Virus record (IMG/VR): IMGVR_UViG_3300035673_000002
Span: 1-64,000 of that record
DNA from: a virus
Taxonomy: Duplodnaviria; Caudoviricetes
DNA length: 64,000 nt
Reading direction: 5' to 3' (one strand)
Shown here: piece after piece, positions 12,182 through 54,877 of the stretch
Layout: each line of letters begins with the position of its first letter
Numbering within the stretch: the stretch's first letter is position 1
Position numbers and translations under genes: made by a program
The notes under the pieces: generated by a model
The model's database searches: none
The model's input: the letters and a program-made list of their open reading frames with translations, nothing else
What the model was told of the DNA's origin: nothing

Positions 12182-14919
12182 GCTGCCATGTCCAGGAAGG
12201 CCGGCGTGTTGTCATTGGCCGCCGGCTCGAGGTCGCGCTTGAGAAGATACGGCGTCGAGATCGCCTGCTCGAGCGAATTCGGGATGCGCGTGGTGAGCCA
12301 CAGCGCTGCGCTGATGATGTAGCCGTTCCAGAACTGCGTTGCGTTCGCGAGCGCTCCGAGGTGGAACGTGGTCACGACAGGCGTCGCCGCCGCGGCCGTG
12401 GCGTTGTTCGCGCCATTGAAATAGGCGGATTGATCTGACGCAGCCGTGGCTGCGACGATCTTTCCGTTTGCGTTTTGCGCCCACACCGCATTCGGCTGGA
12501 AGCCGGAGAACGATCCTCCATTGACTATTCCCGCCTGCGCCAGACCGATATCGAGCGGCCGGAACAGCACCAGACGGTTTGTATTGGAGGTGTCATCGAT
12601 CTGGGCAGCGGTTTGGGTGATGCCGTAGGTCACCGGCGCATTCGGCCTTCCATTGATGAACACCGAGTAGGCGCTCCCGAACGAGAACGTGCCCGTCACC
12701 ACATCGCCCGGACGCGCCACTGCCGCATTCGTCGTGCGGATGGGCGAGCTTGCATAGCCGGTGTTCTTGCCGGACGTCCAGGGGCCAACATAGTAGCGAT
12801 AGGTCACGGTCGGCGTGCCCGAGTAGACGTGCCGCACGCGCACGAAGGCTTGCGTCGTGAGTGCTGGCGCGACCGCCTGGACCTGGTAGAGCGTCAGCGC
12901 ACCGGCAGCTTTGTTGATCGCGGTCGAGGTTCGACTGATCTCGACGTTGCTCGAGTTCCCGAAAAGGACCTCGAGGAAGACGGCGGTGAAGCCCGCATCG
13001 TCGGTGACGGTTTGATAGTAGGCTGTAGCAACCACCACATCGCCGGGGGCAACGGGCGTGACGCTCGCACCTCCAAACGACGCCTGCGGATTGATATCGT
13101 ATTCCGTTCCCGCCGGCAGTGCGCCGCCGGCGAGCGACACGTCGAGCACGTTCTGACCGCTGATCGTTGGAAGCGCCAGCGTGCGCGTCTCGGTCCCGAC
13201 GTTGCTCGAAGCCCACGATGCACCGCCCACGAACGGCAGTGTGCCGGGCGATCCCGCAACGGCTCCGGCGACAGTCGGAGCGCCGAGAAGCTGGGACGTG
13301 ACGCCCGCCTCGATCTGCGGCCAACCGAGCCGCACGATGATGAAGGTATTGGTCGTTGCTGATGGCTGGACGAAGAACACAGGCCGCGTCGTCGCGACGG
13401 TCGCGTCGGTGATGGTCGGCGTGAAGACCATCCGGTTCGCACCGATGCCCGCCGCGCTGCCGCTGGCGACTTGGTTCGCATTTCGATAGGTGCCGATGAA
13501 CGCCGGGCCGGACGCGAAGCTATCCACTCCGTTGTAGACGGACGCGATATTGGTGGCGGTGCCGAGGGTGCGCCAGAACACGCTCGTCGCCACGATCCCA
13601 TTGAGAGCGGTCGCAAACTGCCCGCCCGCTTCGAAGTGAACCCCCTGCTCGGCGGCGGCCGTCGCAAGACCGAAGAAGCACAGATCAAAATACTCGACGC
13701 CGTTCTCCGTTCCGTTGCTGACAACTTGGATGCCGGTGCCAGTATTGTTGTTGAACACATCTTGGTTTGTGGGCAGTTGTCCGGCGTCCTGCACCGAGAC
13801 CCTGGTCAGCGTGACGGCTGTGCTCGCGGTCGAGTTCACGAATGAGATAAAGCTCGTCGTCGATCCAGCCACGAACTGGAAGCGCTTTCCGATCCCCATT
13901 CCGGAACTGACATTGAGCAGCGTGCTCCCGGCAACCGCCGTTCCGACGCGCACCGTGACGGACGTGCCGCCACTGGCGTCGATTGAAAGGTTGTAAGTGT
14001 GGCCAGCAATCGTCGTGAGCGCCGTCGTGCCCTGGAAGTTCGCCGCGTTGCCACTGCCATCCGCCGTGAGGACCACGTTCGGATTGGAGTAGGTCACGGT
14101 CGATGTGCCGCCCACTATGTTCCACTGCCATCCGTTCTGCGGCGTGTTCTGCGAGGCGTTGATCGGGCTCGAAACAAAGTTGCCGTTCGTCACCAACTCG
14201 GCAATGACCGAGGTGCCCTGGAGGATAACCGGGCTGGCAGTGTTGCGCCCGAAGCGGAGCCATGTCGTCGCGCCCGAGGCGGTGAACTGCAATCGAAAGA
14301 AATTGGCTCCGCTGGTGTTGAGCAGATCGTGAGCGCCTTGAGTGGTGCCAACCTCGACATTGACGTTTGCGCCCGAGGTAAATCCGCTGACGTTGTAGGT
14401 CGCGCCAGGAGCAGTGACCATCGACTGCTCGGCGAAGGCCTCGTTGGTACCGTCTCCGGTCAGCGTCAGTTGCGCCGCCCCGAAGACGACGGTGCCGGTG
14501 CCACCGCTCAGACCTGTGGTCCATGTGCTGGTGTCGTAGAATAAGCCGTTGGCGATCAACGTAGGCGCGACGACGATCCCCTGCGCCGAGTTGTTGCGGA
14601 TGCCGTTGGTGGCGGGCTGCTCGATCAGCGCGCCTTTATTCGTGTAGCAGAGCGTGTTCGACGGGACCTGACCCCAATTTCCCGCGGTGTCATCGCAGGC
14701 CTTTGGCAGCGCGCGGACGGTGGTCAGCGGGCAATTGAAAAGCTGCCCGGTCGAGAAGAAGCATCCGACCGACGCGCTCTGGAAACCACTCGGCAAGCGG
14801 TTGGCTCCGCCGAGGATCGCCACGCCCTGGGTCTGCGGCTGGACCGGCTGCGCGATCGCTCCGCTCGCCAGGGCGATGGCGAGGAAGGCCGCAAACCATG
14901 AGCGCATGAAGGAGCGCAT
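12178..14919 (-). CDS. Large fibre/spike-like protein with signal peptide, several CBM-like beta-sandwich domains and a ConA/LamG-like C-terminus
   Basis: FAAFLAIALASGAIA/Q leader; ALIEQPATN...SPIRTTNAAVARPGD frame resembling phage head-spike fibres; repeated (L/V)xNGxF domain starts. The true start may be the second Met (14907). Confidence 0.65.
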   Translation of the reverse strand: MRSFMRSWFAAFLAIALASGAIAQPVQPQTQGVAILGGANRLPSGFQSASVGCFFSTGQLFNCPLTTVRALPKACDDTAGNWGQVPSNTLCYTNKGALIEQPATNGIRNNSAQGIVVAPTLIANGLFYDTSTWTTGLSGGTGTVVFGAAQLTLTGDGTNEAFAEQSMVTAPGATYNVSGFTSGANVNVEVGTTQGAHDLLNTSGANFFRLQFTASGATTWLRFGRNTASPVILQGTSVIAELVTNGNFVSSPINASQNTPQNGWQWNIVGGTSTVTYSNPNVVLTADGSGNAANFQGTTALTTIAGHTYNLSIDASGGTSVTVRVGTAVAGSTLLNVSSGMGIGKRFQFVAGSTTSFISFVNSTASTAVTLTRVSVQDAGQLPTNQDVFNNNTGTGIQVVSNGTENGVEYFDLCFFGLATAAAEQGVHFEAGGQFATALNGIVATSVFWRTLGTATNIASVYNGVDSFASGPAFIGTYRNANQVASGSAAGIGANRMVFTPTITDATVATTRPVFFVQPSATTNTFIIVRLGWPQIEAGVTSQLLGAPTVAGAVAGSPGTLPFVGGASWASSNVGTETRTLALPTISGQNVLDVSLAGGALPAGTEYDINPQASFGGASVTPVAPGDVVVATAYYQTVTDDAGFTAVFLEVLFGNSSNVEISRTSTAINKAAGALTLYQVQAVAPALTTQAFVRVRHVYSGTPTVTYRYYVGPWTSGKNTGYASSPIRTTNAAVARPGDVVTGTFSFGSAYSVFINGRPNAPVTYGITQTAAQIDDTSNTNRLVLFRPLDIGLAQAGIVNGGSFSGFQPNAVWAQNANGKIVAATAASDQSAYFNGANNATAAAATPVVTTFHLGALANATQFWNGYIISAALWLTTRIPNSLEQAISTPYLLKRDLEPAANDNTPAFLDMAA

Positions 14920-28203: not shown

Positions 28204-30967
28204 CAGGTAGCGCGTCCCAGCCCTCGATGTCGTCGGGGATGCGTTCGTATCCTTCATCATCGGAAACTCCTGCCTCGGTCTGCTCCATCACCGCGCGCTC
28301 GTAGGCCTCGAGCGGGTCGCCGACCTGTTCCATGTGCATCATCTCAATGATGCGCTCGCGCAGCTTGCCGGTGACCGAGCCAGCCGGAATGTCTGCCTGT
28401 TCGAGTTCGGTGTCTAGCGAACGTTCGATATCGTCCAACTGCCTCGATGTGTCGGCCGGTGGTTCGTAGCCGACCTTGTATTGCTTTTGGCCGCGCATCT
28501 CGGTGTCGATCGACTCGAGCAGGGTGTTGACGGTGCTTGTGGCCAAGCCCTCGCCGCGGAAACCGGCATCGCTGATGTAGCCGGCCTCGACCGAGGATTC
28601 GCGCGCCTGGTCTAGCTTGTTGCCCTTCGGCCGGATCAACATGCCGAAGCCCGGAACGAATAGGTTTTTCTTTCCGATGATCTGGCGCAGATCGTTCACG
28701 AGCGGATCCTTATCGCTGATCCCTCCGGTGGCGGCGAGGTGCTCGACGAGAGACCACGAGTCGCTGCTGCGCGCGGCCGGGCCCTTGCCGCTCCGGATGT
28801 TCTTGCGGACCGCCGGCGTGATCGCGGCGATCTCGGCCTCCGACATCGGCGTGCCGTAGTAGACGCTGGTGGCGCCTTCCTTGACCTTGCGCAGGTTCAT
28901 GCGCGCGGCCTTGGCCGCCTGGGGCATCGATACGCTCGGCCAGCCGGTGGCCTCGAGCACCTGCTTTGCGGTCACGCCGTGCTCGAGCAGGTAGCCGATG
29001 AGTTCCTTCTTGGATTTAAACGAATCGACTTCGCGCTTTTCGCGCACGGGCTCGCCGGCGCCTGCAGTTGCTCCGCCTGGTGATGCGCCGCCGCCGCCTT
29101 CGCCGAACTTGCCGTCATCGTCGCGCGGGTGCTTCGATTCCTCCCAGGCGTCGAGGTTCAACCAGACATCACCGGCGAGTTCGACGATCCTGCCGCCTCG
29201 GTGGCCAAAAGGGACGATGCTGTCTTCGGCCACCTCCCGCCTGCCGTCGCCGGCGTCGGGATCATCACCGCTTTTGACTTCGGCGCCGGCGAGGCCTCCG
29301 CCGCCTCCGCCCTTGGGCACCAGGCCGCCCATTTCTTCCTCGATTAGATCGGGGGCGTCTTCTGGGTCGAGGCCCGGGTAAAGCGATTCCGGGTCGGCCG
29401 CGACGCGCCGGCGTTCTTCCTCCGGCCGGATGACTCCGGTGTCGATCAGAACCTGCGCGGTCTCGGCATCGCCCTTGCGCTTCTCGCTCTGCTCTTTTTC
29501 GGTGAGCGAAAACAGCGGCAGGAACACAAACGTAAGGTCGGGATCGACTTCGCCCCAGAGGCAGCGCTGCGCCATGTAAAACACCGTTCGGAGGTGGTCG
29601 CCGAAGAAGCGCTCTTGGTAGGCGGCGATGGTGTCGTAATAGGTCCGCGTTACGCCCTCGCTGTCAGCATTGAGGCCCTGCGGTTGGATGCCGAGCAGCT
29701 TGACGGTCGGGATGCGGCTCACCGTGCACATGTGCTCCTGCGACTGCGCCTGCAACTCGTGGAGCCCACCGAGCGGCGCCGATACGTTGCTGAATTCCTC
29801 GGTGTCCTTGTCGAGCACCATGGTTCCGTTGTTGTCTCGGAGGTTGCTGAAGAGCGCGAGGCGCTTAAACAACTGATCGCCGTCGGCCTGCAGCGACGTG
29901 CCGAGATTGGTGCCGAGGACCATCACCGAGAAGGCCTTGATCATGTCGGAGACGCTCTGGCGCGTGCGCAGCCAGTTGTCGACGTAGGGCTTGGCCATCT
30001 GCGACATCGATAGGCCGCCGAAGCCGTAGGCCGGCTTGAGCAGATCGGGCACCTCGCGGCCGACGAACGGAAGCATGCGCGAGACGTGGATTTCGCGCGC
30101 CATGCAATACCAGAATTCGGGCTTGTACCAATCCTTCGCGAGCGGGTTGGTCGCGTTGTAATTCGTCGGGTAGCACCACTGTGGCTCGACGGTGCGAAGC
30201 TCGATTGTGGTGCCCTTGGTGATCTTCGCTTTGCTGAGATCGTCGCGGCCGTCGCCGATCGGGATTTTCAACTCAGCCGGTCTCTCGTAGCTGCCGTTGA
30301 CGTCGATGTAGAGGTGCATGCGGCCGAAGTAGCCGTCCTTTTCCGCGCACTCACGGAACCGGTCCTTGACCTTGAGGCGGTCCATGTAATCGGTGAGCTC
30401 GGCGATCTTATCGGTCTTGTCCTCGCCGCCCTTGGGGCCCTTCGGTGCATCGGGCGCGGCATCGGTGGCGGGATCATCGTCGCCGCGCTCATCGTCGTCC
30501 TGGTCCTGCTTTTTGTTTTTCTTGTCGTTGGGTGCGGTCTTGCCCTGGATGCGGATCCACTTTCGCGTCATCTCGGTCGCGTTGGTTTCGCTAAAGACGC
30601 GGTACTCCGGACGCTGCGCCAGCTGGGCCAGGTAGGCGTAGCCGAGAAACTGCAAGCCTTCGGACCACATGCTCGTGCTGACCTGGGCGAACGCCCAGGT
30701 GAGCGAAGTTCCCTCGCCGGCAAACGCATCGTCCATCGCCATGCCCGTTTCCTTCTCGGGCTTCACGCCCGGCGGGAAGGCGGGCAGCGTGTACGGATTG
30801 ACGAGCGGCGTCGGCCTCCTGGCGGAGCGCGAGACGTGCGTGTCGGTCACGAGTTTGCGGGGTTTGGGCGCCTCATCTTCGGCGGCGATCGGCTTTGAGC
30901 GCCTGCTTGGTGCCGGCTTCGCCTCGAGCGCCTGGCGCGGGGTGTTGGGGGCGCGGGTGCGGGGCAT
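28181..30967 (-). CDS. Portal protein (DUF1073-like) with ~385-aa C-terminal extension
   Basis: FLGYAYLAQLAQRPEYR, EP.WCYP..YNA.NPL..D.YKP, YGFGGLSMSQ, GLNA.SEG....YYD motifs; start at ATG 30967. Confidence 0.9.
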   Translation of the reverse strand: MPRTRAPNTPRQALEAKPAPSRRSKPIAAEDEAPKPRKLVTDTHVSRSARRPTPLVNPYTLPAFPPGVKPEKETGMAMDDAFAGEGTSLTWAFAQVSTSMWSEGLQFLGYAYLAQLAQRPEYRVFSETNATEMTRKWIRIQGKTAPNDKKNKKQDQDDDERGDDDPATDAAPDAPKGPKGGEDKTDKIAELTDYMDRLKVKDRFRECAEKDGYFGRMHLYIDVNGSYERPAELKIPIGDGRDDLSKAKITKGTTIELRTVEPQWCYPTNYNATNPLAKDWYKPEFWYCMAREIHVSRMLPFVGREVPDLLKPAYGFGGLSMSQMAKPYVDNWLRTRQSVSDMIKAFSVMVLGTNLGTSLQADGDQLFKRLALFSNLRDNNGTMVLDKDTEEFSNVSAPLGGLHELQAQSQEHMCTVSRIPTVKLLGIQPQGLNADSEGVTRTYYDTIAAYQERFFGDHLRTVFYMAQRCLWGEVDPDLTFVFLPLFSLTEKEQSEKRKGDAETAQVLIDTGVIRPEEERRRVAADPESLYPGLDPEDAPDLIEEEMGGLVPKGGGGGGLAGAEVKSGDDPDAGDGRREVAEDSIVPFGHRGGRIVELAGDVWLNLDAWEESKHPRDDDGKFGEGGGGASPGGATAGAGEPVREKREVDSFKSKKELIGYLLEHGVTAKQVLEATGWPSVSMPQAAKAARMNLRKVKEGATSVYYGTPMSEAEIAAITPAVRKNIRSGKGPAARSSDSWSLVEHLAATGGISDKDPLVNDLRQIIGKKNLFVPGFGMLIRPKGNKLDQARESSVEAGYISDAGFRGEGLATSTVNTLLESIDTEMRGQKQYKVGYEPPADTSRQLDDIERSLDTELEQADIPAGSVTGKLRERIIEMMHMEQVGDPLEAYERAVMEQTEAGVSDDEGYERIPDDIEGWDALPDDERAAP

Positions 30968-35634: not shown

Positions 35635-35662
35635 CTCATAGTCCGTCCGGCCCGGGTGTCAA
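35635..35662 (-). promoter_or_regulatory. Putative sigma70 promoter, leftward
   Basis: TTGACA-N16-TATGAG about 65 nt upstream of the 35569 start. Confidence 0.55.
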
Positions 35663-35813: not shown

Positions 35814-35926
35814 AACAAATCGGTACGCGCATGAAAATCGTATTTGAATAACTCTGCTGGGTATGGCTACGTGGTCGTTGCCGGCGCCGCTCGGTGCTGG
35901 TCGACAAACCGATGGAGGTTCCGATG
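35814..35926 (+). repeat. Early promoter-leader cassette, copy 1
   Basis: AACAAAtCGGTaCGCGCATGAaAAT...TATGGCTACGTG, hairpin, CGACAAACCGAT, GGAGG, ATG; also TTGAAT-N16-GCTACG. Confidence 0.75.
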
Positions 35927-36184: not shown

Positions 36185-36227
36185 TTTCCGTGCGCGTACC
36201 TTCCTGACAAACCAAGGAGTTTCCGAG

Positions 36228-36950
36228 ATGCTGTTCCCCAACAAATTCGCCGGTACCTGCCGCATCTGTGCAGAGCCGGTCGCTGCCCGTGCCGGGTTCG
36301 TCGAGAAGCGCGACGGTGCCTGGACGGTGCTCTGTGCCGACAGTGGTCGGTGCAAGCCGAAGCCTCCGACGTCGCCGGCGGCGCCTGCAGCTGCTCGTAC
36401 CGCGGTCGGTGATCTATCCGGCATCCTGGCGCTGTTCGGCAAGGCTCGCCAGCACCTGAAGTTCCCGGCGATCTCGCTGGTGGTGCGTATGGCCGATGAG
36501 GCTGAGCTTGCCATCCGTGTCAACGTCGCCGGCGCGCAGGCCCGGGTTCCGGGCTCGCTCACGGTGGTCGACTCCGAGCGCGACGAGGCGACGGGCCGGC
36601 GCGATTGGTTGGGCCGGATTCATCTCGACGGGACGTTCGAGGTGTCGCGCTCGGGGCGCGCGTACATGCCTGCGCTACTCGATCGGCTGCAGGCCTTCGC
36701 TGCCGATCCCGCCAAGATCGCGGGCGAGGATGGGCGCCTGCATGGCCGGTGCTGCTTCTGCCGCATCGCGCTCTCCGATGAGCGCTCGACGTTCGTCGGG
36801 TATGGCAGGATTTGCGCTTCGCGCTACGGGCTGCCGTGGGGCGAGGTCGAGGCGCCGGTCGAGCCGTCGGCTCCGGCGGTCAATCTGTTCAATGGCGCGA
36901 CCGATCCCGAGCGCGATGCGGTCGGGCAGATGATGGGGAGGAACCTGTGA
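36228..36950 (+). CDS. Zinc-ribbon protein (DUF6011-like C-terminus)
   Basis: AAGGAG RBS; CRIC...C and GRCCFCRIALSDERS..VGYG.ICA..YGLPW. Confidence 0.8.
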   Translation: MLFPNKFAGTCRICAEPVAARAGFVEKRDGAWTVLCADSGRCKPKPPTSPAAPAAARTAVGDLSGILALFGKARQHLKFPAISLVVRMADEAELAIRVNVAGAQARVPGSLTVVDSERDEATGRRDWLGRIHLDGTFEVSRSGRAYMPALLDRLQAFAADPAKIAGEDGRLHGRCCFCRIALSDERSTFVGYGRICASRYGLPWGEVEAPVEPSAPAVNLFNGATDPERDAVGQMMGRNL

Positions 36951-37452: not shown

Positions 37453-37559
37453 AACAAAGCGGTGCGCGCATGAGAATTCGCTACACAAACGAACGACGCT
37501 ATGGCTACGTGTGCGGGCCGGCAGATGCCGGTCCGACAAACCGATTGGAGCCTGCCATG
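37453..37559 (+). repeat. Early promoter-leader cassette, copy 2
   Basis: AACAAAgCGGTgCGCGCATGAgAAT...TATGGCTACGTG, hairpin, CGACAAACCGAT, GGAG, ATG. Confidence 0.75.
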
Positions 37560-37754: not shown

Positions 37755-37846
37755 CGGCCGTCCCTGGCCTTCCGCGGCGTCCTGGTGGCGCCGCGGTGGG
37801 GCGGGATCGTCCCGTCTGACAAACCACAAACCGAAGGAATTTTGCC

Positions 37847-38944
37847 ATGTCTCTCATGAATAGCACCGCGGCCGCTCCGAAGCCGCATAGCTTCGAATAC
37901 AAGGGCCGTCCGATCACGTCTCGCCTGGGCGATGACGGCGTCGGCGTGGTCCGCGTCTACAATGCCTGCCGGTCCCGCGTCGTGCACAAGACGACGTCGC
38001 TCGATCTCGCCACGCGCTGGATCGACGGCTTGGCTGGCAGCGATGCCGGCGTGCCGGCTCCGGAGACCGAGGCGTCGGTCGCGGCCGAAGTGGACGCATG
38101 GGCGACGGCGGCGGGCGTGCCGGTGCCGGCTGAGCCGGCCTTGGATGCCGGCATGACGCCTCGCGAGGTCCGCGATTTCATCAAGGCCGGTGACCATGTT
38201 CGCGTGCTGGTCGACGGCTGCGGTGGCGTCGGCACCGACGATGGCGGCGAAGAGCAACGCGAATTCAAGGCGGGCGAGATCGTCCGGGTGGATCGTCTCG
38301 ATCAGTTCCGGCCTCCGCAGGGGTTGGCGGCCACGATCGTGTCGGCGAGTGGCGTCGTCAACGTGTTCGACGAGGCCGACTTCGATGGGATCTACCCGTT
38401 CGAGCTTCTGGGCGACGGCACGCCGCTCGCCGCGGGCACGCTGATCGATGGGATTGATTGCTCCGGCATGACGGATCTCGCCCCGGGCATCCCGGTCTAC
38501 CTGCAGCCCCACAATCGCCGCGCGCTCACTCCGGAGCAGGCTGGTCGTGTGGCTGCTCTGGCTGCGGCTCGTGCGGAAGAGGCCCGCATCAAGCGCGAGG
38601 GCGATAGCACCGTGGTGTCCGATCTGGTCGCCGCGGCGAAGGCGAAGCGCGGCGGTGGCAAGGGCGCGAAGCGCTCGGGCGGTGGCGCCGGTGCCGGCGG
38701 CTCGGGCTCGGGCGGTGGCTCAGCCAAGAAGCGCGGCGGTGGGGCGAAGAAGCCGGCCGACGGGAAGAGCAAGACGGCGATCGTCGCCGGTCTGCTCAAG
38801 CGCTCGGGCGGCTGCACCACGGCCGACATCCTCGAGGCGACGGGTTGGCCGTCGGTGTCGGTGCCGGCCATGGCGAAGGCGGCTGGGCTCCGGCTCCGGA
38901 AGGAGAAGGTCAAGGGCTCGCCCACTCAGTACTTCGGGTCCTGA
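37847..38944 (+). CDS. Multidomain protein with C-terminal DUF3489-like winged helix
   Basis: KSKTAIVAGLLKRSGGCTTADILEATGWPSVS; Gly-rich linker. Confidence 0.75.
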   Translation: MSLMNSTAAAPKPHSFEYKGRPITSRLGDDGVGVVRVYNACRSRVVHKTTSLDLATRWIDGLAGSDAGVPAPETEASVAAEVDAWATAAGVPVPAEPALDAGMTPREVRDFIKAGDHVRVLVDGCGGVGTDDGGEEQREFKAGEIVRVDRLDQFRPPQGLAATIVSASGVVNVFDEADFDGIYPFELLGDGTPLAAGTLIDGIDCSGMTDLAPGIPVYLQPHNRRALTPEQAGRVAALAAARAEEARIKREGDSTVVSDLVAAAKAKRGGGKGAKRSGGGAGAGGSGSGGGSAKKRGGGAKKPADGKSKTAIVAGLLKRSGGCTTADILEATGWPSVSVPAMAKAAGLRLRKEKVKGSPTQYFGS

Positions 38945-39006
38945 TCCTGGTGGCGATCGGGGGCGGCTTCGGCCGCCTCCGCTTCGTTCGTGGGGAGGCT
39001 GCAGCC

Positions 39007-39462
39007 ATGCGGGACCATCGACTTCGTACGCGCCGGCTCAAGCTCGGCGTTTCGCAGTTTCACCTGGGGTGTGTCGCCGGTTTTACTCCGCGCAGCGCTC
39101 AATCCATGGTCAGCCATGTCGAGCGCTCGAGCGCGTCCTCGAGCCCGGCGGCCGTTCAGAAGGTCCGCTCCGCCCTGGTATGGCTGGAGACCCAGCAGCG
39201 GCGCGAGCGGGAATGGGCGCGTGCGGATGCGGCCGCGGGCGCGCTGGTGGCGCGCGCGGTCGCCGAGGGGCCGGGCGCCGAGGGCTACGAGACGCTGGTG
39301 GTCGAGCGGCTCGTGTCGCTGCTGTGCGACAATCGCGGCGACGAGTTCGACGTCCTGGCTGCGCGCGTGCCGGCGCCGCTCTGTGAGCGCGCGGGCAATC
39401 TGTACCTGGATCTGTGCACTCCGGTGCCGCTGGTGCCGGGCAACATCGGAGAACGTTCATGA
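39007..39462 (+). CDS. XRE-family HTH protein
   Basis: LRTRRLKLGVSQFHLGCVAGF...SMVSHVERS. Confidence 0.7.
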   Translation: MRDHRLRTRRLKLGVSQFHLGCVAGFTPRSAQSMVSHVERSSASSSPAAVQKVRSALVWLETQQRREREWARADAAAGALVARAVAEGPGAEGYETLVVERLVSLLCDNRGDEFDVLAARVPAPLCERAGNLYLDLCTPVPLVPGNIGERS

Positions 39463-39629
39463 GCGATGACGCTTCGTCTGCCCAGGATACGCTGGTTCAT
39501 TACTTCCGCACCGTGTGGGAGCAGGCTGGCTTGCCGTGGATCGCCGACAACGAGACCGAGGTTCGCGGGATCGTGCGCCGCATCGTCGACGCCTCGGTGA
39601 AGGCCGCGCGGCACGACATCTGCCGATGA
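39459..39629 (+). CDS. Small hypothetical protein
   Basis: ATGA coupling; GGAG RBS. Confidence 0.6.
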   Translation: MSDDASSAQDTLVHYFRTVWEQAGLPWIADNETEVRGIVRRIVDASVKAARHDICR

Positions 39630-40051
39630 GAGACAATCAGCATCTTGAGGCCGGTGCTCGGCGCGCGCGGTACTACCCGGTGCGGCCGACATGGCTCTCG
39701 CATCAACAGAGCATCCGCCGGCGCGGTCCCTGGCATCGCTGCACCGATTGCGGTGGCGCGCGTCCGCTCGGGCCCATGCTGATCGAGGACCTGTGGGAGC
39801 GTCTCGGCGGCGATGATGACGTGCTCTGTCATCCCTGCCTGTGCCGGCGGCTCGGCCGGCCGGTTACCGTGCGGGATCTCCGCGAGTGCCTGTTCAACTT
39901 GCAGCACCTGCCCGAGCGTCTGCTCGAGCCGTACCTGCGCGAGGTCCTGCGCCGGATCCATGGGCGGATGAACGTGCAGATGGCGCTCGAGGCCCGGGTG
40001 GACGAGCAGCTCCTGCCGGCGGGCTGGCGGGGCGACGGCGAATTGCTCTAA
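39626..40051 (+). CDS. Zinc-finger hypothetical protein
   Basis: CTDC...M...LW......LCHPCL.RRLGR. Confidence 0.65.
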   Translation: MRDNQHLEAGARRARYYPVRPTWLSHQQSIRRRGPWHRCTDCGGARPLGPMLIEDLWERLGGDDDVLCHPCLCRRLGRPVTVRDLRECLFNLQHLPERLLEPYLREVLRRIHGRMNVQMALEARVDEQLLPAGWRGDGELL

Positions 40052-40072
40052 GCTCGGGGCGTGGATGGGGAG

Positions 40073-40105
40073 AGGGCTCGGCTTCGGCTGGGCCCTTTTC
40101 CTTTT
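40073..40105 (+). terminator. Rho-independent terminator
   Basis: AGGGCTCGGC-TTCG-GCTGGGCCCT followed by TTTCCTTTT, at the convergence of two operons. Confidence 0.85.
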
Positions 40106-40123
40106 GGGGCGGCCGCTGGTGCG

Positions 40124-41656
40124 TTAAACGAGGGCGTCCGCTGCCTCGGCCCGCCCTCTGGCGATCTCCGCATGGGTGTGGCGGCCGCCGGCCAGGACGG
40201 CGGCATTCCCGGAGAACGTTTGCCACCTCTGGATGGCCGCGTCGCAATAGGCCGGGTCGAGTTCCACGCCGAAAGCCCGGCGCCCGGTCATCTCGGCGCC
40301 GATGATCGTGGTTCCGGAGCCGGCGAAGCCGTCGATCACGATCTCGCCTGGTCGGCTCGAGTTCGCGATCGCGCGCCTGGCGAGCTCGACGGGCTTCTGC
40401 GTCGGATGCACGTAGTCCTGGTCGCGGGCGACTTCCCACACCGTGCTCGAGCCCTCGGCGCCGGCGAGGTAGACCGTCGGTCGCTTGCCGGTGAGCCGGA
40501 CCTGGCGCACGGTCTTGCCCTTGGGCGTCTTGCTGTGGACGTAGAGCGCGTTGCCCTCGCCGTCGAGCACGACGATGCCTGGCCCAATGACGGCCGCGGT
40601 GTCGTTGGCAGTTGCGAGCTCCACCCGCCAGACCGTCGACTCGTTGGGTTCGCCGTGAAACGCCGGTTTGTGCTCCGGCCTCGAGGCGTAAAAGCACGGC
40701 TCGTGCGCCCAGCGGTAGTCGGCGTGGCCTGGTACGATGCTGGGCTTGGCCCAGATCAGGTACTGACGCTCGACCAGGCCGGCGGCGGTCATCGCCTCGG
40801 AGAAGTCGTTGCGGGTGGCGCTGGCGTGCCAGATGTACCAGCCGGCATCGGGGACGGTCATGGCGGCCATGCGGGTGAAGCTCGCCACCAGCATCCGGAA
40901 GAGGTCATCGCGGCGCTTGTCGTCGCCCTCGATCGTCTCGCCGGCGGCGTTCTCGTAGCTCACGCCGTAGGGCGGATCGGTGAACACCATCGCCGCGCGC
41001 TCGCGCTGCATGAGCGCGTTCCAGGTGGCCTCGAGGGTGGCGTCGCCGCAGATCAGGCGGTGCTCGCCGAGGATCCAGACGTCGCCGCGCCGGGCGGTCG
41101 CCGCGCGCGGTGGCACCGGGACCTGGTTCGGATCGCCGGTCGCCGGCGTGGCGAGCAGCTGCGGCATGTTGGGGAAGCCGAGCAGCGGCATGTCGAAGCC
41201 GGCGAGGCTGAGCCGACGTGCCTCGGCCTTGAGCATCGGCATGTCCCATTGGGAGATGCGGCCGAGTTGGTTGTCTGCGAGGCGGTAGGCCGCCTTGTCG
41301 CTCTCCGGCCATCCGCGCGCGATCGCCACGGGTAACTCGGCAAAGGCGCGCTGGCCCTGGTCGACGAGCTTGAGCGCCGCGAGGCGCCGGCCGTGGCCGT
41401 AGATGAGCACGCCTTCCTCATCCACCAGCACCGGGGTGGTGACGCCGAAGCGCTCCATCGATGCCGCCAGCTGCTCGATCTGGTCGGGGTCGTGCTTCAT
41501 GGCGTTCTGTGGGTATGGCTTGATGCGATCGAGCGGCCAGCGCTCGACCTGGTCGGCGGGCCAGGGCCGCAGCGGCGGCCGGAGTTTCGCGTCTCCGGCC
41601 GCCGCATCAGGCATCAGGCGTCTCTGCATGGGAGGAATGGCGGCAATGTTAATCAC
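40124..41656 (-). CDS. ParB-N-domain / DNA amino-methyltransferase fusion
   Basis: YPQNA.KH...VLVD...LIYGHGR..AA (ParB/Srx), DPPYG, HPTQKPVEL, DGFAGSGTT. True start probably 41629 or 41614. Confidence 0.9.
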   Translation of the reverse strand: MINIAAIPPMQRRLMPDAAAGDAKLRPPLRPWPADQVERWPLDRIKPYPQNAMKHDPDQIEQLAASMERFGVTTPVLVDEEGVLIYGHGRRLAALKLVDQGQRAFAELPVAIARGWPESDKAAYRLADNQLGRISQWDMPMLKAEARRLSLAGFDMPLLGFPNMPQLLATPATGDPNQVPVPPRAATARRGDVWILGEHRLICGDATLEATWNALMQRERAAMVFTDPPYGVSYENAAGETIEGDDKRRDDLFRMLVASFTRMAAMTVPDAGWYIWHASATRNDFSEAMTAAGLVERQYLIWAKPSIVPGHADYRWAHEPCFYASRPEHKPAFHGEPNESTVWRVELATANDTAAVIGPGIVVLDGEGNALYVHSKTPKGKTVRQVRLTGKRPTVYLAGAEGSSTVWEVARDQDYVHPTQKPVELARRAIANSSRPGEIVIDGFAGSGTTIIGAEMTGRRAFGVELDPAYCDAAIQRWQTFSGNAAVLAGGRHTHAEIARGRAEAADALV

Positions 41657-41675
41657 GTTCGATGTCGGGCGTCAA
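41646..41675 (-). promoter_or_regulatory. Putative sigma70 promoter for the methyltransferase
   Basis: TTGACG-N18-TAACAT. Confidence 0.55.
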
Positions 41676-41679
41676 ACGC

Positions 41680-41833
41680 AGCTGCGCCCCGCTCGTGGGG
41701 AGCAGGGCGCAGCCTCTACGACAAACCGAAGAGCCCGGTTCGAACGGAAGGCCTCCGATGACAAGAGACCGCCACACTCGTTTGGACCAACATCGCCCCA
41801 GGAGGAGTTTCCGACGCTTCAACCGGGGCTGCA
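41680..41833 (-). ncRNA. Candidate antisense small RNA
   Basis: Intergenic; promoter upstream; several stems; contains the complements of both early-leader boxes (see findings). Confidence 0.45.
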
Positions 41834-41839
41834 GGGCGG

Positions 41840-41869
41840 TGCATACGCCAAGCCGAGGGCTGGTGTCAA
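41840..41869 (-). promoter_or_regulatory. Putative sigma70 promoter for the candidate sRNA
   Basis: TTGACA-N18-TATGCA. Confidence 0.55.
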
Positions 41870-41880
41870 ACATCGCGTGG

Positions 41881-42222
41881 TCATGCGCTCCGGCCATCGA
41901 GCCATCGATAATCGATTGCCCGTCCCGCGTCCCGCGCTGCCTCGATCCCTTGCTTCATGCCACGCGAGATTCCGCGGTCCTGGTAGACGACGGTCTTGGT
42001 GGCGTGGTTGCCCCAGGCGAGCCCGGCGAGAATACCGAGGTTGCGCTCCGAATCGATCGCGTCGTTGAGGATGCCGGGCTGGGTGTAGAGCAGATGCGAA
42101 GCGAACGGGTATTCCCAGCGGTCGAAGCAGTCGCGCATGCAGGCGCGGGCATATGCGACGTTTTCCGCCGTCTCCGCGTCCGTGGCGCCGCGGTACGGGC
42201 TCTCGAGTAGGACCAGGATCAC
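41881..42222 (-). CDS. Small Rossmann-like phage protein (nucleoside deoxyribosyltransferase-like fold suspected)
   Basis: VLLESPY.G.....N..YARACMRD.....E.PFASHLLYTQPGIL.D...ER..GI.AGLAW...GIS.GM; GTG start. Confidence 0.7.
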   Translation of the reverse strand: MILVLLESPYRGATDAETAENVAYARACMRDCFDRWEYPFASHLLYTQPGILNDAIDSERNLGILAGLAWGNHATKTVVYQDRGISRGMKQGIEAARDAGRAIDYRWLDGRSA

Positions 42223-42413
42223 AGCCGGTACTCCTTTTCGACAAACCCGAGGTTCGGGTCGCCCACGAGCGTCCACGGGATCTTGGTTTTGTGGCTGACG
42301 TAGTGGCGCCAATGCGATCGGCGGAAATGCAGGCGCTTGCGGGTGTGATGCTCGAATGCGCCGGCGGGCGTCGGGAGCCGATCGGCGCGCTCGTGGCGCC
42401 TGGCGAGGCTCAC
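42219..42413 (-). CDS. Short, possibly truncated hypothetical protein
   Basis: RLHFRRSHWRHY...WTLVGDPNLGFVEKEYRL. Confidence 0.5.
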   Translation of the reverse strand: MSLARRHERADRLPTPAGAFEHHTRKRLHFRRSHWRHYVSHKTKIPWTLVGDPNLGFVEKEYRL

Positions 42414-42470
42414 GATGTGGTGAGTCGCCCGGGTAGTGCATCTTTTCGGTGGGCTCCCATGGCTTGTCGG

Positions 42471-42710
42471 TCATGGCTTCCTCCGGATTTCGTTGATGCC
42501 CTCGGGCCCGTAGATCACGAACGTCGGCGACATCCGCACCGTCGTGAGGTCGGCCTCGAGGTGGACGTCCTTGGTGAAGCACCTGCCGCCGAGCAGGCGG
42601 TGCGCGCGCTCGTGCGCGTCGCGTGCGCTCGAGGCCGTGATGGTGGCCGTGCCGGTGATCCGGATTGGCACCGTGAACTCCTGCGGAGCGGCCTTGGATG
42701 CCCTGCGCAT
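42471..42710 (-). CDS. Small hypothetical protein
   Basis: GGGAGGAAG RBS; coupled to upstream gene. Confidence 0.55.
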   Translation of the reverse strand: MRRASKAAPQEFTVPIRITGTATITASSARDAHERAHRLLGGRCFTKDVHLEADLTTVRMSPTFVIYGPEGINEIRRKP

Positions 42711-42898
42711 CACGCTTCCTCCCGGTCTGCGCATTCGTCGCATTGGTAGCCGCGGCGGCGATCGGCCTCACTCAGCCGGTTGGGTTCGCCGCAGGTTGGG
42801 CACGGCTGGTTGCGCGGGTTGCGGCGGTTGGCGGCGACGAGCGCGGAATGCTTCATCGGCGAGAAGCCGGCCTTTTGGAAATGACGTCTGTGCCTCAT
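42710..42898 (-). CDS. Small zinc-finger protein
   Basis: PCPTCGEPNRL...GYQCDEC. Confidence 0.7.
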   Translation of the reverse strand: MRHRRHFQKAGFSPMKHSALVAANRRNPRNQPCPTCGEPNRLSEADRRRGYQCDECADREEA

Positions 42899-43218
42899 CG
42901 CACGCCTCCCGGGTTGAGATCTGTGATGTCATCGCAGAGGAGTACCTGGGCGATCGTTTCCTCGATCAACTTGTGCGATCGCGGGAAGGTTTGCCTCGCG
43001 GCGGTGGCCCGTTTGGGTTTCGTCTCTCGCACCGTGATTTCGAAGGTGCGCCTGATCTCGCCCTTGGGCGCCGTGATACGCACCTGCAGCGTGCCGGTGC
43101 GCGGTTGGCTCACGTCGATGCTACAGCCCTTGTCGACCAGCCCACGCAGGAGCGGGTTGCACGAGACTGCGATGCGCATTTCCTCGGTGAGCGCGGCCTT
43201 GATCTGGTGCGGGTTCAT
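42895..43218 (-). CDS. Hypothetical protein
   Basis: ATGA coupling; GGAGG RBS for the next gene at its end. Confidence 0.6.
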   Translation of the reverse strand: MNPHQIKAALTEEMRIAVSCNPLLRGLVDKGCSIDVSQPRTGTLQVRITAPKGEIRRTFEITVRETKPKRATAARQTFPRSHKLIEETIAQVLLCDDITDLNPGGVR

Positions 43219-43349
43219 TGTGCCGGCTCGCCGGCGGCGAGCATGACGAGCGGCCGGATGTACGGGGCCCAGGTCATGATCATGTAAGCGAAGCCCGAAG
43301 CGGCGGCGACGGCCGCGGCCTCGAGCGCTATGTCCTTGAATGTCGGCAT
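43215..43349 (-). CDS. 44-aa membrane peptide
   Basis: Not in ORF track; AGGAG RBS; MPTFKDIALEAAAVAAASGFAYMIMTWAPYIRPLVMLAAGEPAQ; stop overlaps the next ATG. Confidence 0.65.
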   Translation of the reverse strand: MPTFKDIALEAAAVAAASGFAYMIMTWAPYIRPLVMLAAGEPAQ

Positions 43350-43386
43350 CGGAAACTCCTGCTCGTTTGGGTTTGTCGCTGGTGGT

Positions 43387-43698
43387 TCAGTCTCGCCGCG
43401 TCAGCGCGCGCTTTTCCATGTGCTCTGACACGACGTCTTCCCAGGCCTGTCTCGGGCGTCGGGCTCGAGCGGCCGTGAGTGCTTCCTGGGCTTCGGCGCC
43501 GAGCGCGATGAGCGCCTCGGATGCGCGCCGCTCGGAGAGCAGAGCTCTCGCCTGGGCCCTCGACATTCTGGTCGACCGCCGCTGGCGGCGATCGTCGCCG
43601 AAATAATTGACCACGGCGGTTCTGCCGTTGCGCTCGATCGTGACGCGCTGGCGTGCCAGCTGGAGCGCGCTCCTGATGGTGATCCGGGCGAGGGACAT
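43387..43698 (-). CDS. Hypothetical basic protein
   Basis: TAATG coupling. Confidence 0.55.
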   Translation of the reverse strand: MSLARITIRSALQLARQRVTIERNGRTAVVNYFGDDRRQRRSTRMSRAQARALLSERRASEALIALGAEAQEALTAARARRPRQAWEDVVSEHMEKRALTRRD

Positions 43699-43931
43699 TA
43701 CGCGGCTTCCTTGCTTCGCCTGCGGTGCAGCTCGTCCTGGTTCGGGTAGATGAGATTGGCCAGGATGTTGCCGGCGATCACCACGACGAGCGTGCGCCAG
43801 GGCTCGAGCCCGAGCGCCATCGCCAGCATCATGAGCAGGCCGGCCCAAACGAACACCCGGACCGCGTGCTCGCGCAGGCCGACGATGAAGCCGTGCGCGA
43901 AGCGGGCCTTGAGGTAGATGGCGCGGATCAT
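43698..43931 (-). CDS. Small two-TM membrane protein
   Basis: VFVWAGLLMMLAMALGL / LVVVIAGNILANLIY; AGGAG RBS. Confidence 0.65.
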   Translation of the reverse strand: MIRAIYLKARFAHGFIVGLREHAVRVFVWAGLLMMLAMALGLEPWRTLVVVIAGNILANLIYPNQDELHRRRSKEAA

Positions 43932-44197
43932 GGTGTGCTCCTGGGCGCGACGCTGAAGGTGCCGATCCAGCGCGCGTTGCGCTGGAGCACTCGTTGGCGC
44001 GCGGTGGGGTCGAGTCGGTGGATGTCGAACAGGGCGATCGTGCGGGCGCGGTTCGCGTAGGCCGGTACCGCGAGGGCTCGGCGTGCCATGCTGCGGCCGC
44101 TCTCGTAGGCCTCGCGCACCGAGGCGCATTTGCGCGCCTCGACGATCGCGTACCTGCCGGGTTCGACCAGGGCGATGACGGTGGCCATATAGTTCAT
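43928..44197 (-). CDS. Hypothetical protein
   Basis: GGGAG RBS; ATGA coupling. Confidence 0.55.
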   Translation of the reverse strand: MNYMATVIALVEPGRYAIVEARKCASVREAYESGRSMARRALAVPAYANRARTIALFDIHRLDPTARQRVLQRNARWIGTFSVAPRSTP

Positions 44198-52835: not shown

Positions 52836-53596
52836 TCGCCCGCGGCCTTGCCGGCCTCAAAATCCTTGTTCAGTTGATTGCCCGCGGCGGCGTTCGCCGC
52901 GAGCGTGGCAGCGAAGTCCTTTCGGCTCACCGGCGTGCCGCTGGTTTGCTCGGCGGGGCCGAGCTTGTCGGCACCGAGCTCCGGCGTGGCGGGTGCTACG
53001 TCGCCCGGCATGGTCTGCCCGGCCGCGGCCTGATGCTCGGTCCTCGACGGTGGCGCCTTGAAACCGCCGGCGAGCGTCTCCTGGTGGTTGTTGTAGCCGG
53101 CCATCCAGGATCGATAGGCCTCGGTGTCGGGTGCGTGCGGCGGCTTGCGCGGCTGGTTGTTCATGCTCGCGATCTTGCCGGCGTCAAACGCGCGGTCGGT
53201 GATCGGTGTGCGGTCGGGCTGTTCGAACAGGTCCAGCTGGGCGCCCATAGGGTGGCCGATCCAACGAGCGACCTGGAGGCGATCCTTGACTTCGGCGACG
53301 ACTTTCGCCTCCGCCTTCGCCTTGCCGGCCAGCTGGTCGGCGATCTGCATCTGCTTGACCGTGTAGCCGTCGGCCTTGAGCGCGGCCTTCACATCGCGCC
53401 CGATTTCCTCGACCGCGGCGACCTTGCCCTGCCAGGAAATCCACGCGGTGCGGTGCTGCAGGAAGCCTTCCTGCATCTGATCGGCGGTGCGATCGCCGCC
53501 GTTGTCGCCCGGGCCGGCGGCGCCTGGCGCGTCAGCCTTGGTGCGCGGTTTGCGGGGTGACTTGCTCGCTCCGGTTTTCGGCGGTCGCTTGGCCAT
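52832..53596 (-). CDS. GapR/DUF2312-like nucleoid protein with C-terminal extension
   Basis: EE.GRDVKAALKADGY.VKQM...L...E..LQVARWIG...QLDLF. Confidence 0.6.
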   Translation of the reverse strand: MAKRPPKTGASKSPRKPRTKADAPGAAGPGDNGGDRTADQMQEGFLQHRTAWISWQGKVAAVEEIGRDVKAALKADGYTVKQMQIADQLAGKAKAEAKVVAEVKDRLQVARWIGHPMGAQLDLFEQPDRTPITDRAFDAGKIASMNNQPRKPPHAPDTEAYRSWMAGYNNHQETLAGGFKAPPSRTEHQAAAGQTMPGDVAPATPELGADKLGPAEQTSGTPVSRKDFAATLAANAAAGNQLNKDFEAGKAAGE

Positions 53597-54173
53597 CGGT
53601 GGGGCTCCCTGGGGTTGTGCCGAGTGGAATTTTAAAACGATGATGCGCTGCGGCGAGCCCGGCGACGCTCGCGAAGCGGTGGAACGGACAATAAAAATCG
53701 TTCGGATCATCGCGCCGTGGGCGCGCGCAGTGCAGGAACGGCGTGGTCTCAGTCACCGGCCAGCGGCATTCGTTCCAGGCGAGATCCAGGAGCGACTTGG
53801 CGCCGTGGTCGATGGACATCGAGCGGTGGACTTCGGCCGTGGTCGGTTCGCGCGGCTTGGCCGCCTCGGTGGCGCCCTTCGGCCGGATCGTGGGATTGAA
53901 ATTTCCGCGCGTCGCCGGCGGCTTTTTCGGCGGTGCGTTCGGGCCCTTGGTCGCCGGCCGGCCGCGGACGTTCATGTGGCCGAAGCCGTGCGTGTGCTCG
54001 CCCGGCCATTTGCGCCGGTTCTGGAGGCCGAGGACCTGGTTTCGGGTGATCGTGATGGCGAACTTGGCGGTCAACTCAAAAGCGATATCGCCGCCCGTGC
54101 GGCCCTCGCCCCACATCGCCTTGGCTTCGGCTACCCACTCCGGATCGTTTGGTTTCGCGTCGCGGTTTGTCAT
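53532..54173 (-). CDS. gcrA: GcrA-like cell-cycle regulator
   Basis: N-terminal W..G.TG.DIA.EL...TRNQV.G...R HTH; C-terminal SLLDL..NECRWPV...C....YCPFH. Confidence 0.85.
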   Translation of the reverse strand: MTNRDAKPNDPEWVAEAKAMWGEGRTGGDIAFELTAKFAITITRNQVLGLQNRRKWPGEHTHGFGHMNVRGRPATKGPNAPPKKPPATRGNFNPTIRPKGATEAAKPREPTTAEVHRSMSIDHGAKSLLDLAWNECRWPVTETTPFLHCARPRRDDPNDFYCPFHRFASVAGLAAAHHRFKIPLGTTPGSPTDGQATAENRSEQVTPQTAHQG

Positions 54174-54430
54174 GGCCCGGCGTCGGCTCCGGGTTGGAGG
54201 AAGTTCTCGGCGGCGGCTGGCGGGAGGTGTCCGCGATGCCCGAACCCCGGGCACGGCGACCACGCGTATGCCCGTTCGCGCGCGTTGTCAAACGAGCCGG
54301 GTGACGACGTTGCGAGTCCTGCCGTCGGCGAGACGCCGGCGCGAGCCGCCTTCGGCGAAGCGCAGCGCCGGCGGGATCTCTGCTCTCTCGGCTCGAGTCC
54401 CTCTGTGGTGGAAAAATGCTCTATCGGCAT
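54170..54430 (-). CDS. Possible small hypothetical protein
   Basis: ATGA coupling to gcrA; weak composition. Confidence 0.35.
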   Translation of the reverse strand: MPIEHFSTTEGLEPREQRSRRRCASPKAARAGVSPTAGLATSSPGSFDNARERAYAWSPCPGFGHRGHLPPAAAENFLQPGADAGP

Positions 54431-54671: not shown

Positions 54672-54877
54672 TCGCTCCGCGGGGCGGTCGGGGCGTCGTC
54701 TGCGGCGCCGATTTTGACATCATGAAATTCTTGCCCTATGGCTGTCGACGCGTTGCCGACCGACGAGGCTGCGTTCCGCTCTCCGCTTGCGCCATCGGGT
54801 GTATTCTAATACCCGGCGCTACCTGAAAGCACCGCCTCCCGGCCGCCTGCGCGGCGAACCGAATGGGAGGCTTTCCG

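Follow-up and report, generated by a model that had tools for sequence, protein, structure and literature searches.

Why does a non-coding spacer in a phage genome carry, in inverted form, the leader that stands before the phage's own early genes? The question is raised by positions 41,680 to 41,869 of a stretch of 64,000 nucleotides, here called the window, which is the first 64 kb of an IMG/VR soil virus genome (record IMGVR_UViG_3300035673_000002; 72,830 bp, 65.6% GC, completeness 100% by CheckV estimate). The block is part of a 225-bp spacer (41657-41880), which has a minus-strand gene on either side, one for a DUF7768 protein and one for a ParB-methyltransferase, called the methylase below. 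The reading favoured here, with moderate confidence, is that this spacer gives rise to an antisense RNA of about 160 nucleotides, which would block the translation of early genes by way of the leaders they share.

The shared leader and its complement

The plan of a true leader in this genome is a hairpin, a box, a Shine-Dalgarno (SD) sequence and ATG. The box CGACAAACCGA is found exactly at 35902, 37534 and 41719, and in close variants at 36206, 37824, 43368(-) and 44411(-). The hairpins in these leaders contain G-U pairs and fold much more stably in the sense direction: -15.8 vs -6.9, -19.3 vs -14.0 and -14.5 vs -6.6 kcal/mol.

The second motif is the 12-mer AGGAGTTTCCGA. There are exactly four copies of it in the 72,830-bp genome, where about 0.005 would be expected (the analyst's calculation from base composition). 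Three of these (28260-, 36215+, 43349-) form the SD and spacer before the ATG of open reading frames (ORFs) with a GC content at third codon positions (GC3) of 0.76-0.86. A preliminary description of this DNA, made from the letters alone, had correctly pointed to the copies at the genes at 36228 and 43349, and had missed the one at 28260. The fourth copy, at 41803(+), has CG behind it and runs counter to the direction in which the locus is transcribed. The resemblance among the four copies ends sharply at the edges of the 12-mer, and such borders point to selection on the motif rather than to a recent long duplication.

A lone 12-mer match is unremarkable for a query of 158 nucleotides in a GC-rich genome; an unrelated 12-mer also matches. 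The block however reaches an exact complementarity of at least 9 nucleotides with 7 of the 32 start regions. On the same statistic, composition shuffles have a mean of 1.1 (0/300 reach the observed score), and the sense-strand control scores 1. The complementarity to the shared leaders, as it had been described before, is thus real. That both leader motifs lie in one spacer in leader order, together with the complementarity to multiple starts, is not chance.

Counted by hand, the seed against the ribosome-binding site (RBS) could pair over 15 bp, with one G-U, across the AUG at 43349, over 14 bp at 28260 and over 12 bp at 36228. The 79-codon gene with its SD and start at 28258-28271 shares the 12-mer with two early genes, so the predicted regulon would reach the structural operon.

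Proposed mechanism

From the sequence we infer transcription, termination, pairing in vivo and an effect on translation, in the following way. A promoter at 41869-41840 would start an RNA near 41833, and this RNA would end at, or pause in, the GC hairpin at 41714-41680, for a length of about 150-160 nucleotides. The seed UCGGAAACUCCU in the 5' loop would then pair with the SD, the spacer and the start of three genes. The other seed, UCGGUUUGUCG, which lies before the terminator, would pair with the GACAAACCGA box, found between the 5' hairpin and the SD of the early-gene leaders. This pairing would cover the ribosome-binding site and turn off the translation of a set of early genes, the DUF3489 and DUF6011 genes among them. 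The paired mRNAs would perhaps also be exposed to decay.

Since the unit lies directly before the ParB-methyltransferase gene, the RNA would either be a free-standing small RNA (sRNA) or the 5' leader of the methylase mRNA, cut short by termination. If it is the latter, read-through would link methylase expression to the shut-off. Both may be true.

An immunity switch had also been put forward for this locus, and this is unlikely. No tyrosine integrase, serine recombinase or HTH_3 repressor was found in the whole genome, and a temporal shut-off of early genes is for that reason the more likely role, fitting better than lysogenic immunity.

Layout of the locus

The features of the locus and the predicted targets are listed in Table 1. 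The features that had been named earlier (the promoter-like site, the stems, the seeds and the 3' hairpin) are all where they were said to be. One of them fared less well under its name: the palindrome of the supposed T-loop-like hairpin is there, but the hairpin itself is weak, and ARAGORN finds no tRNA-like gene.

Table 1 Position of the predicted RNA, its parts, its predicted targets and its neighbours in the window.
Feature	Position	Strand	Remarks
Promoter-like site, sigma-70 type	41840..41869	-	TTGACA-N18-TATGCA; -35 41869-41864, -10 41845-41840; read from sequence
5' stem-loop	41795..41829	-	GCCCCGG (41829-41823)/CUGGGGC (41801-41795), 7 bp, one G-U, 21-nt loop
Anti-RBS seed UCGGAAACUCCU	41803..41814	-	In the 5' loop; exact complement of AGGAGUUUCCGA
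Middle stem-loop	41750..41770	-	GGUCUCU/GGAGGCC, two G-U pairs; -11.5 kcal/mol minus vs -5.6 plus strand
Palindrome CCGUUCGAACCGG, weak hairpin	41735..41747	-	T-loop-like hairpin, -2.9 kcal/mol
Anti-box seed UCGGUUUGUCG	41719..41729	-	Complement of the leader box CGACAAACCGA
15-bp GC hairpin, probable terminator or attenuator	41680..41714	-	-32.3 kcal/mol minus vs -28.5 plus strand
Second promoter-like site	41646..41675	-	TTGACG-N18-TAACAT; just behind the hairpin and before the methyltransferase start
Predicted target, leader of DUF6011 gene	36205..36230	+	GACAAACC, then AGGAGTTTCCGA, then ATG 36228
Predicted target, leader of 44-aa gene	43347..43378	-	CGACAAACCCA, 7 nt, AGGAGTTTCCG-ATG
Predicted target, SD and start of 79-aa gene overlapping the 3' end of the portal gene	28258..28271	-	AGGAGTTTCCG-ATG
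Predicted target, leader of 86-aa gene	35902..35926	+	CGACAAACCGA-TGGAGGTTCCG-ATG; upstream hairpin stable on sense strand only
Predicted target, leader of 65-aa gene	37534..37559	+	Exact box, ATG 37557; upstream hairpin stable on sense strand only
Predicted target, leader of DUF3489 gene	37824..37849	+	ACAAACCGAAG (11-nt match), ATG 37847
ParB-N6/N4 DNA methyltransferase gene	40124..41629	-	PF01555 3.9e-24, phrog_498 2e-122; the block is always upstream of this gene
DUF7768 (nucleoside deoxyribosyltransferase-like) gene	41881..42413	-	PF24963 8e-26, residues 186-288 of a long ORF

The promoter-like site belongs to a small class. The genome has three instances of the pattern TTGACA-N16-18-TATG, where 200 dinucleotide shuffles give 0.05. 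All three sites are intergenic, at 35647-35662 (-), 41840-41869 (-) and 54714-54742 (+), and they face genes or the anti-leader block. They are probably the host-type promoters of this phage.

Of the stems, the isolated 5' hairpin folds at -13.5 kcal/mol, and in the fold of the full-length RNA its region is partly paired in another way. A 4-bp CUCU/AGAG stem could present the anti-box seed in its loop. The tail behind the 3' hairpin, UGCGUUUGA, includes the -35 of the second promoter-like site.

The spacer is non-coding on both strands. A minus-strand frame of 42 codons has a GC3 of 0.60, and a plus-strand frame from 41758, which extends antisense into the DUF7768 gene, has a GC3 of 0.67; the genes discussed here, including the neighbours of the spacer, are at 0.76-0.92. 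A small protein gene in the spacer, on either strand, was rejected on these values.

Around the spacer, the minus strand carries replication genes, among them those for a primase-helicase and a second methylase. Small genes, the DUF6011 gene and the DUF3489 gene lie in a short plus-strand block at 35.9-39.5 kb. The methyltransferase starts at ATG 41629 or 41614, and the form on record has 496 aa. This start has no SD sequence; just upstream lies the pyrimidine motif CAUUCCUCCC (41630-41640, -). The other neighbour, the DUF7768 gene, ends with the stop codon 41881-41883, and its domain is C-terminal. The homologues are about 170-180 aa long, and the true start of the gene is uncertain. In IMG/VR the DUF7768 protein has no match, and in a large protein set only its C-terminal domain does.

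The block in related phages

Close DNA relatives were of no help. The block has no match in the phage collection, and an exact 26-mer search of IMG/VR gave none either. Metagenome contigs hold no methylase relative above 48% identity, and among cultured phages the best methylase identity is 38%, too low for any published transcriptome to apply. A look for RNA runs that contain this phage gave none. As no relative was close enough to align the spacer directly, loci were fetched via homologues of the methylase protein. Those examined are 49-66% identical, and all are uncultured assemblies.

Where the methylase is preceded by a non-coding gap, the early-gene leader of the phage in question turns up in it as a reverse complement, read on the methylase strand. 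This is the case in four related phages (L007/L025, L139, L222 and L008), in the same place and the same orientation as in the window. The preliminary description had called for such a check for covariation in relatives. L139 and L222 were chosen as prospective tests once the pattern had been formulated. The orientation is inverted relative to the methylase in 5/5 cases.

The details differ per phage, each having its own leader. In L007 and L025 the gap has CUCCGUCGGUUGAAG, where the leaders have (C)TTCAACCGA-N1-2-GGAG, and an 11-bp GC hairpin follows, with tails UCUUUUUU in L007 and AUUCUUCGG in L025. In L139 the gap has UUCGGUUGGAC, complementary to GTCCAACCGAA, which is part of the leader that precedes the gene at 14176-14409. 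There the hairpin is 15 bp long with three G-U pairs and the tail UUCAAUUUC, and a loop CGGAAACCCCUCCUC in a CCCC/GGGG stem resembles the 5' loop of the window. In L222, UUUCGGUUGG in the gap is the complement of CCAACCGAA in the DUF3489 leader, and a hairpin and UUUUUC come next.

For L008 the gap has GUGGUCCUCUC, against GAGAGGACCAC at four gene starts. The sequence GAGAGGACC occurs five times, always on the strand opposite the methylase. Four of these copies are the SD, spacer and ATG of called genes. The fifth is an orphan about 280 nucleotides before the methylase, after an uncalled upstream ORF, and it is the sole copy without a start codon. A hairpin follows the anti-leader, but there is no U-run. 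As to the uncalled ORF, 3315-3689 (+) is protein-like, about 110-124 codons long, and fills most of what appeared as an upstream gap. This gives L008 the same order as the window: gene, anti-leader, methylase.

Outside L008, thus in the window, L007, L025, L139 and L222, a hairpin with a stem of 11-15 bp (-27 to -35 kcal/mol) and a U-rich tail comes 0-9 nucleotides after the anti-leader; the homologous anti-boxes in the four relatives read UCGGUUG... and keep that same distance. The hairpins end 1-42 nucleotides before the methylase ATG in all block loci but L008. The U-tails at this position in L007, L222 and L139 are clearer than that of the window, and those of L007 and L222 are canonical. 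In L007, TTGACA comes directly after the terminator, as the second promoter-like site does in the window. By eye, there are also comparable hexamers at positions matching the first promoter-like site, TTGCAA-N17-TATGCC in L025 and TTGTGA-N17-TATATC in L007.

G-U pairs strengthen the methylase-strand hairpin in the window and in L139, where it folds at -29.3 kcal/mol on the methylase strand vs -22.1 on the other. L007 is neutral in this respect, and L025 leans slightly the opposite way. This strand bias, the U-tails on the methylase strand and the fact that these hairpins are longer than those of the leaders together suggest that an RNA is made in the direction of the methylase and that the hairpin ends or attenuates it.

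Had the relatives carried an intact plus-strand gene here, the block could be taken for a decayed leader. No such gene was found. After the inverted leader there is no start codon at working distance in L007, L025, L008 or L222, and in L139 only a GTG after an SD-like stretch, which opens about 45 uncalled codons.

On the statistic of exact complementarity, L008 has P < 1/300, L007 P = 0.01 and L139 P = 0.01. The fetched loci, 4.8 Mb in all, have five instances on both strands of the composite of TCGGTT(T)G, a strong hairpin and a U-rich tail, and 4 of these are the pre-methylase blocks, with the caveat that this pattern was defined from the data it describes.

Methylase relatives from IMG/VR and genome contigs were all at most 55% identical, and a crude automated search for inverted leaders, run on the IMG/VR loci and on those fetched before, showed no excess of antisense over sense matches. 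The unit thus seems confined to the closer clade. An alignment of the 3' modules with MAFFT was too poor for a covariance model. The 15-mer CTCCGTCGGTTGAAG was also tried as a query in IMG/VR, and its 30 matches were dismissed as chance or as true leaders read backwards.

Some other things were seen in these loci. Dense repeats AAAGGAGGAAA/TTCCTCCTTT lie at 6440-6740 in L139, and GTAACC units at 3500-3720 in L007, both within long pre-methylase gaps. They look like iterons or multiple protein-binding sites. A second soil metagenome (run X2) has short contigs that are about 90-95% identical to parts of 38400-44000. They do not usefully cover the block, but they do mean that a close strain exists.

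Block, box and targets occur together

In seven relatives (L006, L026, L027, L028, L140, L141 and L142) the methylase abuts the upstream gene, and there is no block. The box goes missing along with it: across six gap-less relatives AACCGA is found in 1 of 125 called leaders, and L142 has no AACCGA copy at a gene start. Box-bearing leaders number 3/12 in L007 and 3/23 in L139, and the window has several. In the methylase tree, lineages with and without the block are interleaved, and the sister of the window, L006, has no block. The pattern is therefore not the inheritance of one clade, although a methylase tree may not mirror the history of whole phages.

The targets recur as well. The box stands before the DUF3489 gene in five phages (the one of the window, L007, L025, L139 and L222), in the leader, and likewise in the leader of the DUF6011 gene in the window and L139. 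Such conserved targets are what a real RNA regulon predicts.

As a tentative extension, it may be that a clade of soil phages has an RNA regulon whose parts co-evolve. A cassette of hairpin, box and SD would tag early genes, of which the DUF3489 winged-helix gene would always be one. A single anti-leader RNA, made from the front of the ParB-methyltransferase gene, would switch these tagged genes off, and read-through of the terminator would turn the methylase on.

The cassette has wider use. In three other IMG/VR contigs (L040 3554-3568, L050 363-377 and L055 3559-3573), CTTCAACCGACGGAG-N5-7-ATG is a true gene leader behind a hairpin. The box-plus-SD cassette is thus in use beyond the methylase-linked clade.

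Alternative explanations

Several points count against an antisense RNA. The class of promoters was defined after its sites had been seen, and the -10 of the site in the spacer, TATGCA, agrees with the consensus at only 3/6 positions. The tail behind the 3' hairpin of the window is poor in U, and this hairpin does not pass a simple terminator scan. In the fold of the full-length RNA the seeds are open to a moderate degree only (it costs 5.1 and 3.4 kcal/mol to open them), and the fold z-scores of the whole element (-2.3 for the minus strand vs -3.0 for the plus strand) show no preference for the minus strand. Hybridisation energies from RNAduplex, over the whole genome and over start regions at 66% GC, fail to separate real from shuffled seeds. 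The longest helix with G-U allowed is also unspecific, as the antisense of any leader trivially matches other leaders. The gene starts in the window are the analyst's own calls. Among the relatives, the sisters L007 and L025 amount to a single lineage, and L025 is not significant on the exact-match statistic, its leaders differing from the seed by small indels. The gap-less control L140 reached P = 0.01 via unrelated GC-rich matches, so this statistic is not clean on its own. Lastly, the leaders and the block form one repeat family, and recombination could keep such copies alike without any selection for pairing.

This last point leads to a different account, in which the block is an orphan: an inverted leader copy with no antisense role, left by recombination and kept alike by gene conversion. 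Its working parts would then be the terminator of the upstream gene and the promoter of the methyltransferase only. Repeated leaders are natural recombination sites, and the plus strand of the block does read as pieces of a leader. It has the box at 41719, a 14/15 match to the 44391 leader at 41729-41743, GGAAGG-N6-ATG at 41758, and AGGAGGAGTTTCCG-ACG. Neutral decay would however be expected to leave a different pattern, since box and 12-mer are intact and the 73 nucleotides between them are unrelated to any leader. The adjoining hairpins are also unlike those of true leaders, being long and having their U-tails on the methylase strand, where two are clearly stronger. What also weakens this account is that the block keeps its place and orientation before the methylase in at least 4 lineages, which have different upstream neighbours and leader sequences, together with those terminator-like features on the methylase strand. 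An orphan copy is on balance unlikely.

The constant link to the methylase gene, with the block 1-42 nucleotides from its ATG, also allows for a role in cis. The block could be a 5' leader or attenuator of the ParB-methyltransferase mRNA, with the hairpin halting transcripts from the 41869 promoter until something binds the anti-leader and lets the polymerase read on. Abundant early mRNA leaders could do so, or a protein specific for the leader motif. The complementarity would then time the methylase and silence no early genes. That the anti-box abuts the hairpin (0-9 nucleotides) agrees with this, as does the methylase start of the window, which lacks an SD of its own and sits behind CAUUCCUCCC, a motif that recurs in L008, L025 and L007. 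But the seeds are outside the terminator stem, so that pairing would not obviously stop the stem from forming, and a consistent partner for them in cis did not turn up near methylase starts. In addition, the window and L007 have a second promoter-like site between the hairpin and the methylase gene. Attenuation is quite unlikely. A very improbable option is that the box, with core AACCGA, is a DNA operator, bound as double-stranded DNA by a phage regulator such as the DUF3489 winged-helix protein or a GcrA-like protein. Sites at the early-gene leaders and before the methylase would then be occupied irrespective of strand. The core is indeed kept across phages with differing flanking bases, the DUF3489 gene always has the box, as an autoregulated gene would, and in L007 and L025 the block has GANTC sites and GcrA genes in its vicinity. 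Against this, the shared sequence extends through SD and spacer to the start codon (12/12 in the window, 11/11 in L008), and the orientation is strictly inverted (5/5); these two facts weaken the operator idea. The box is moreover neither palindromic nor repeated, as operators usually are, and the hairpins of true leaders form only in sense RNA.

Comparison with known systems

Most of the regulatory RNAs known from phages have a single neighbouring gene as their target (c4, sar, OOP) or else act on the host. The c4 RNA of P1 and P7 pairs with the ribosome-binding region of the ant mRNA via complementary segments that are probably exposed in loops (PMC12197685; PMC8546580). Like c4 and the CI RNA of P4, the RNA predicted here would be encoded by a phage, aimed at phage ribosome-binding regions and equipped with two separate seeds. 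Two segments complementary to the ribosome-binding region of the targets, as in c4, are present (41814-41803 and 41729-41719), and both are able to lie in loops. Reportedly, c4 is a processed 77-base RNA (title of Citron and Schuster 1992, cited in PMC8546580). It comes from the immI operon and has ant as its single downstream target. The predicted RNA would be different: about 160 nucleotides long, with its own promoter and terminator, and with at least 6 dispersed targets on both strands, which are not downstream in one operon. In c4 the processing involves RNase P and a tRNA-like end; in the block ARAGORN finds no tRNA-like gene.

Membership of the C4 family was not borne out by Rfam, which has no match to C4 or to any other of its models here. 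No family reaches its gathering score in the window, and there are no matches in L007, L025, L139 or L008. The C4 model is absent among the matches up to E = 10 for 41500-42000. The best of the weak matches, Rfam CC1840, a Caulobacter sRNA, came up at 25.2 bits (E = 0.27) against a threshold of 50 bits and was set aside as driven by the hairpin. A tRNA-like element was likewise considered and dropped on the ARAGORN result.

Bacterial sRNAs that act in trans and end in a terminator, some of them derived from 5' untranslated regions, consist of a promoter, a seed and a Rho-independent terminator, and control several mRNAs at the RBS. The predicted RNA is like these in that a seed adjoins the terminator and that it may be produced when transcription stops early in front of a gene. 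It is unlike them in being encoded by a phage against its own early genes, and in having targets with a dedicated leader cassette of hairpin, box and SD.

In T4, the RegB endoribonuclease and the RegA repressor bring about a global shut-off of early phage mRNAs through their SD regions. The proposed outcome here is similar; RegB and RegA are proteins, however, and the effector proposed here is an RNA.

If the regulon exists, one RNA element would time the transition from early to middle genes. It would be an RNA counterpart of RegB and RegA, and a new RNA family absent from Rfam. The phage would have a compact temporal programme that needs no repressor protein and works via a shared leader tag. 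If coupled to the DNA methyltransferase gene, the switch would be tied to the expression of the methylase. The rule can be tested, as it says that the gap before the methylase carries the complement of the phage's own leaders, and it names the DUF3489 and DUF6011 genes as conserved targets. Although the phage is uncultured, the element is short enough for synthetic constructs.

Further observations

The pyrimidine motif CAUUCCUCCC before the methyltransferase start looks like an anti-SD and not like an SD. It recurs before the methylase ATG in L008 (3795-3805), L025 and L007, with CCUCC in L007 and L025.

Within the first 20 codons of the methyltransferase ORF there is a perfect 13-bp hairpin at 41567-41600 (-), GCGGCGGCCGGAG/CUCCGGCCGCCGC with the loop ACGCGAAA. 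Weak Rfam matches of the microRNA type at 41567-41600 were rejected as artefacts of this hairpin. The stretch that contains it is not conserved, matches to homologues starting at residue 28.

In the whole genome, two genes code for ParB-like proteins, at 40124-41629 and 63244-65019, and one for a GcrA-like protein, at 53532-54263. GcrA genes are also found near the methylase in L007 and L025.

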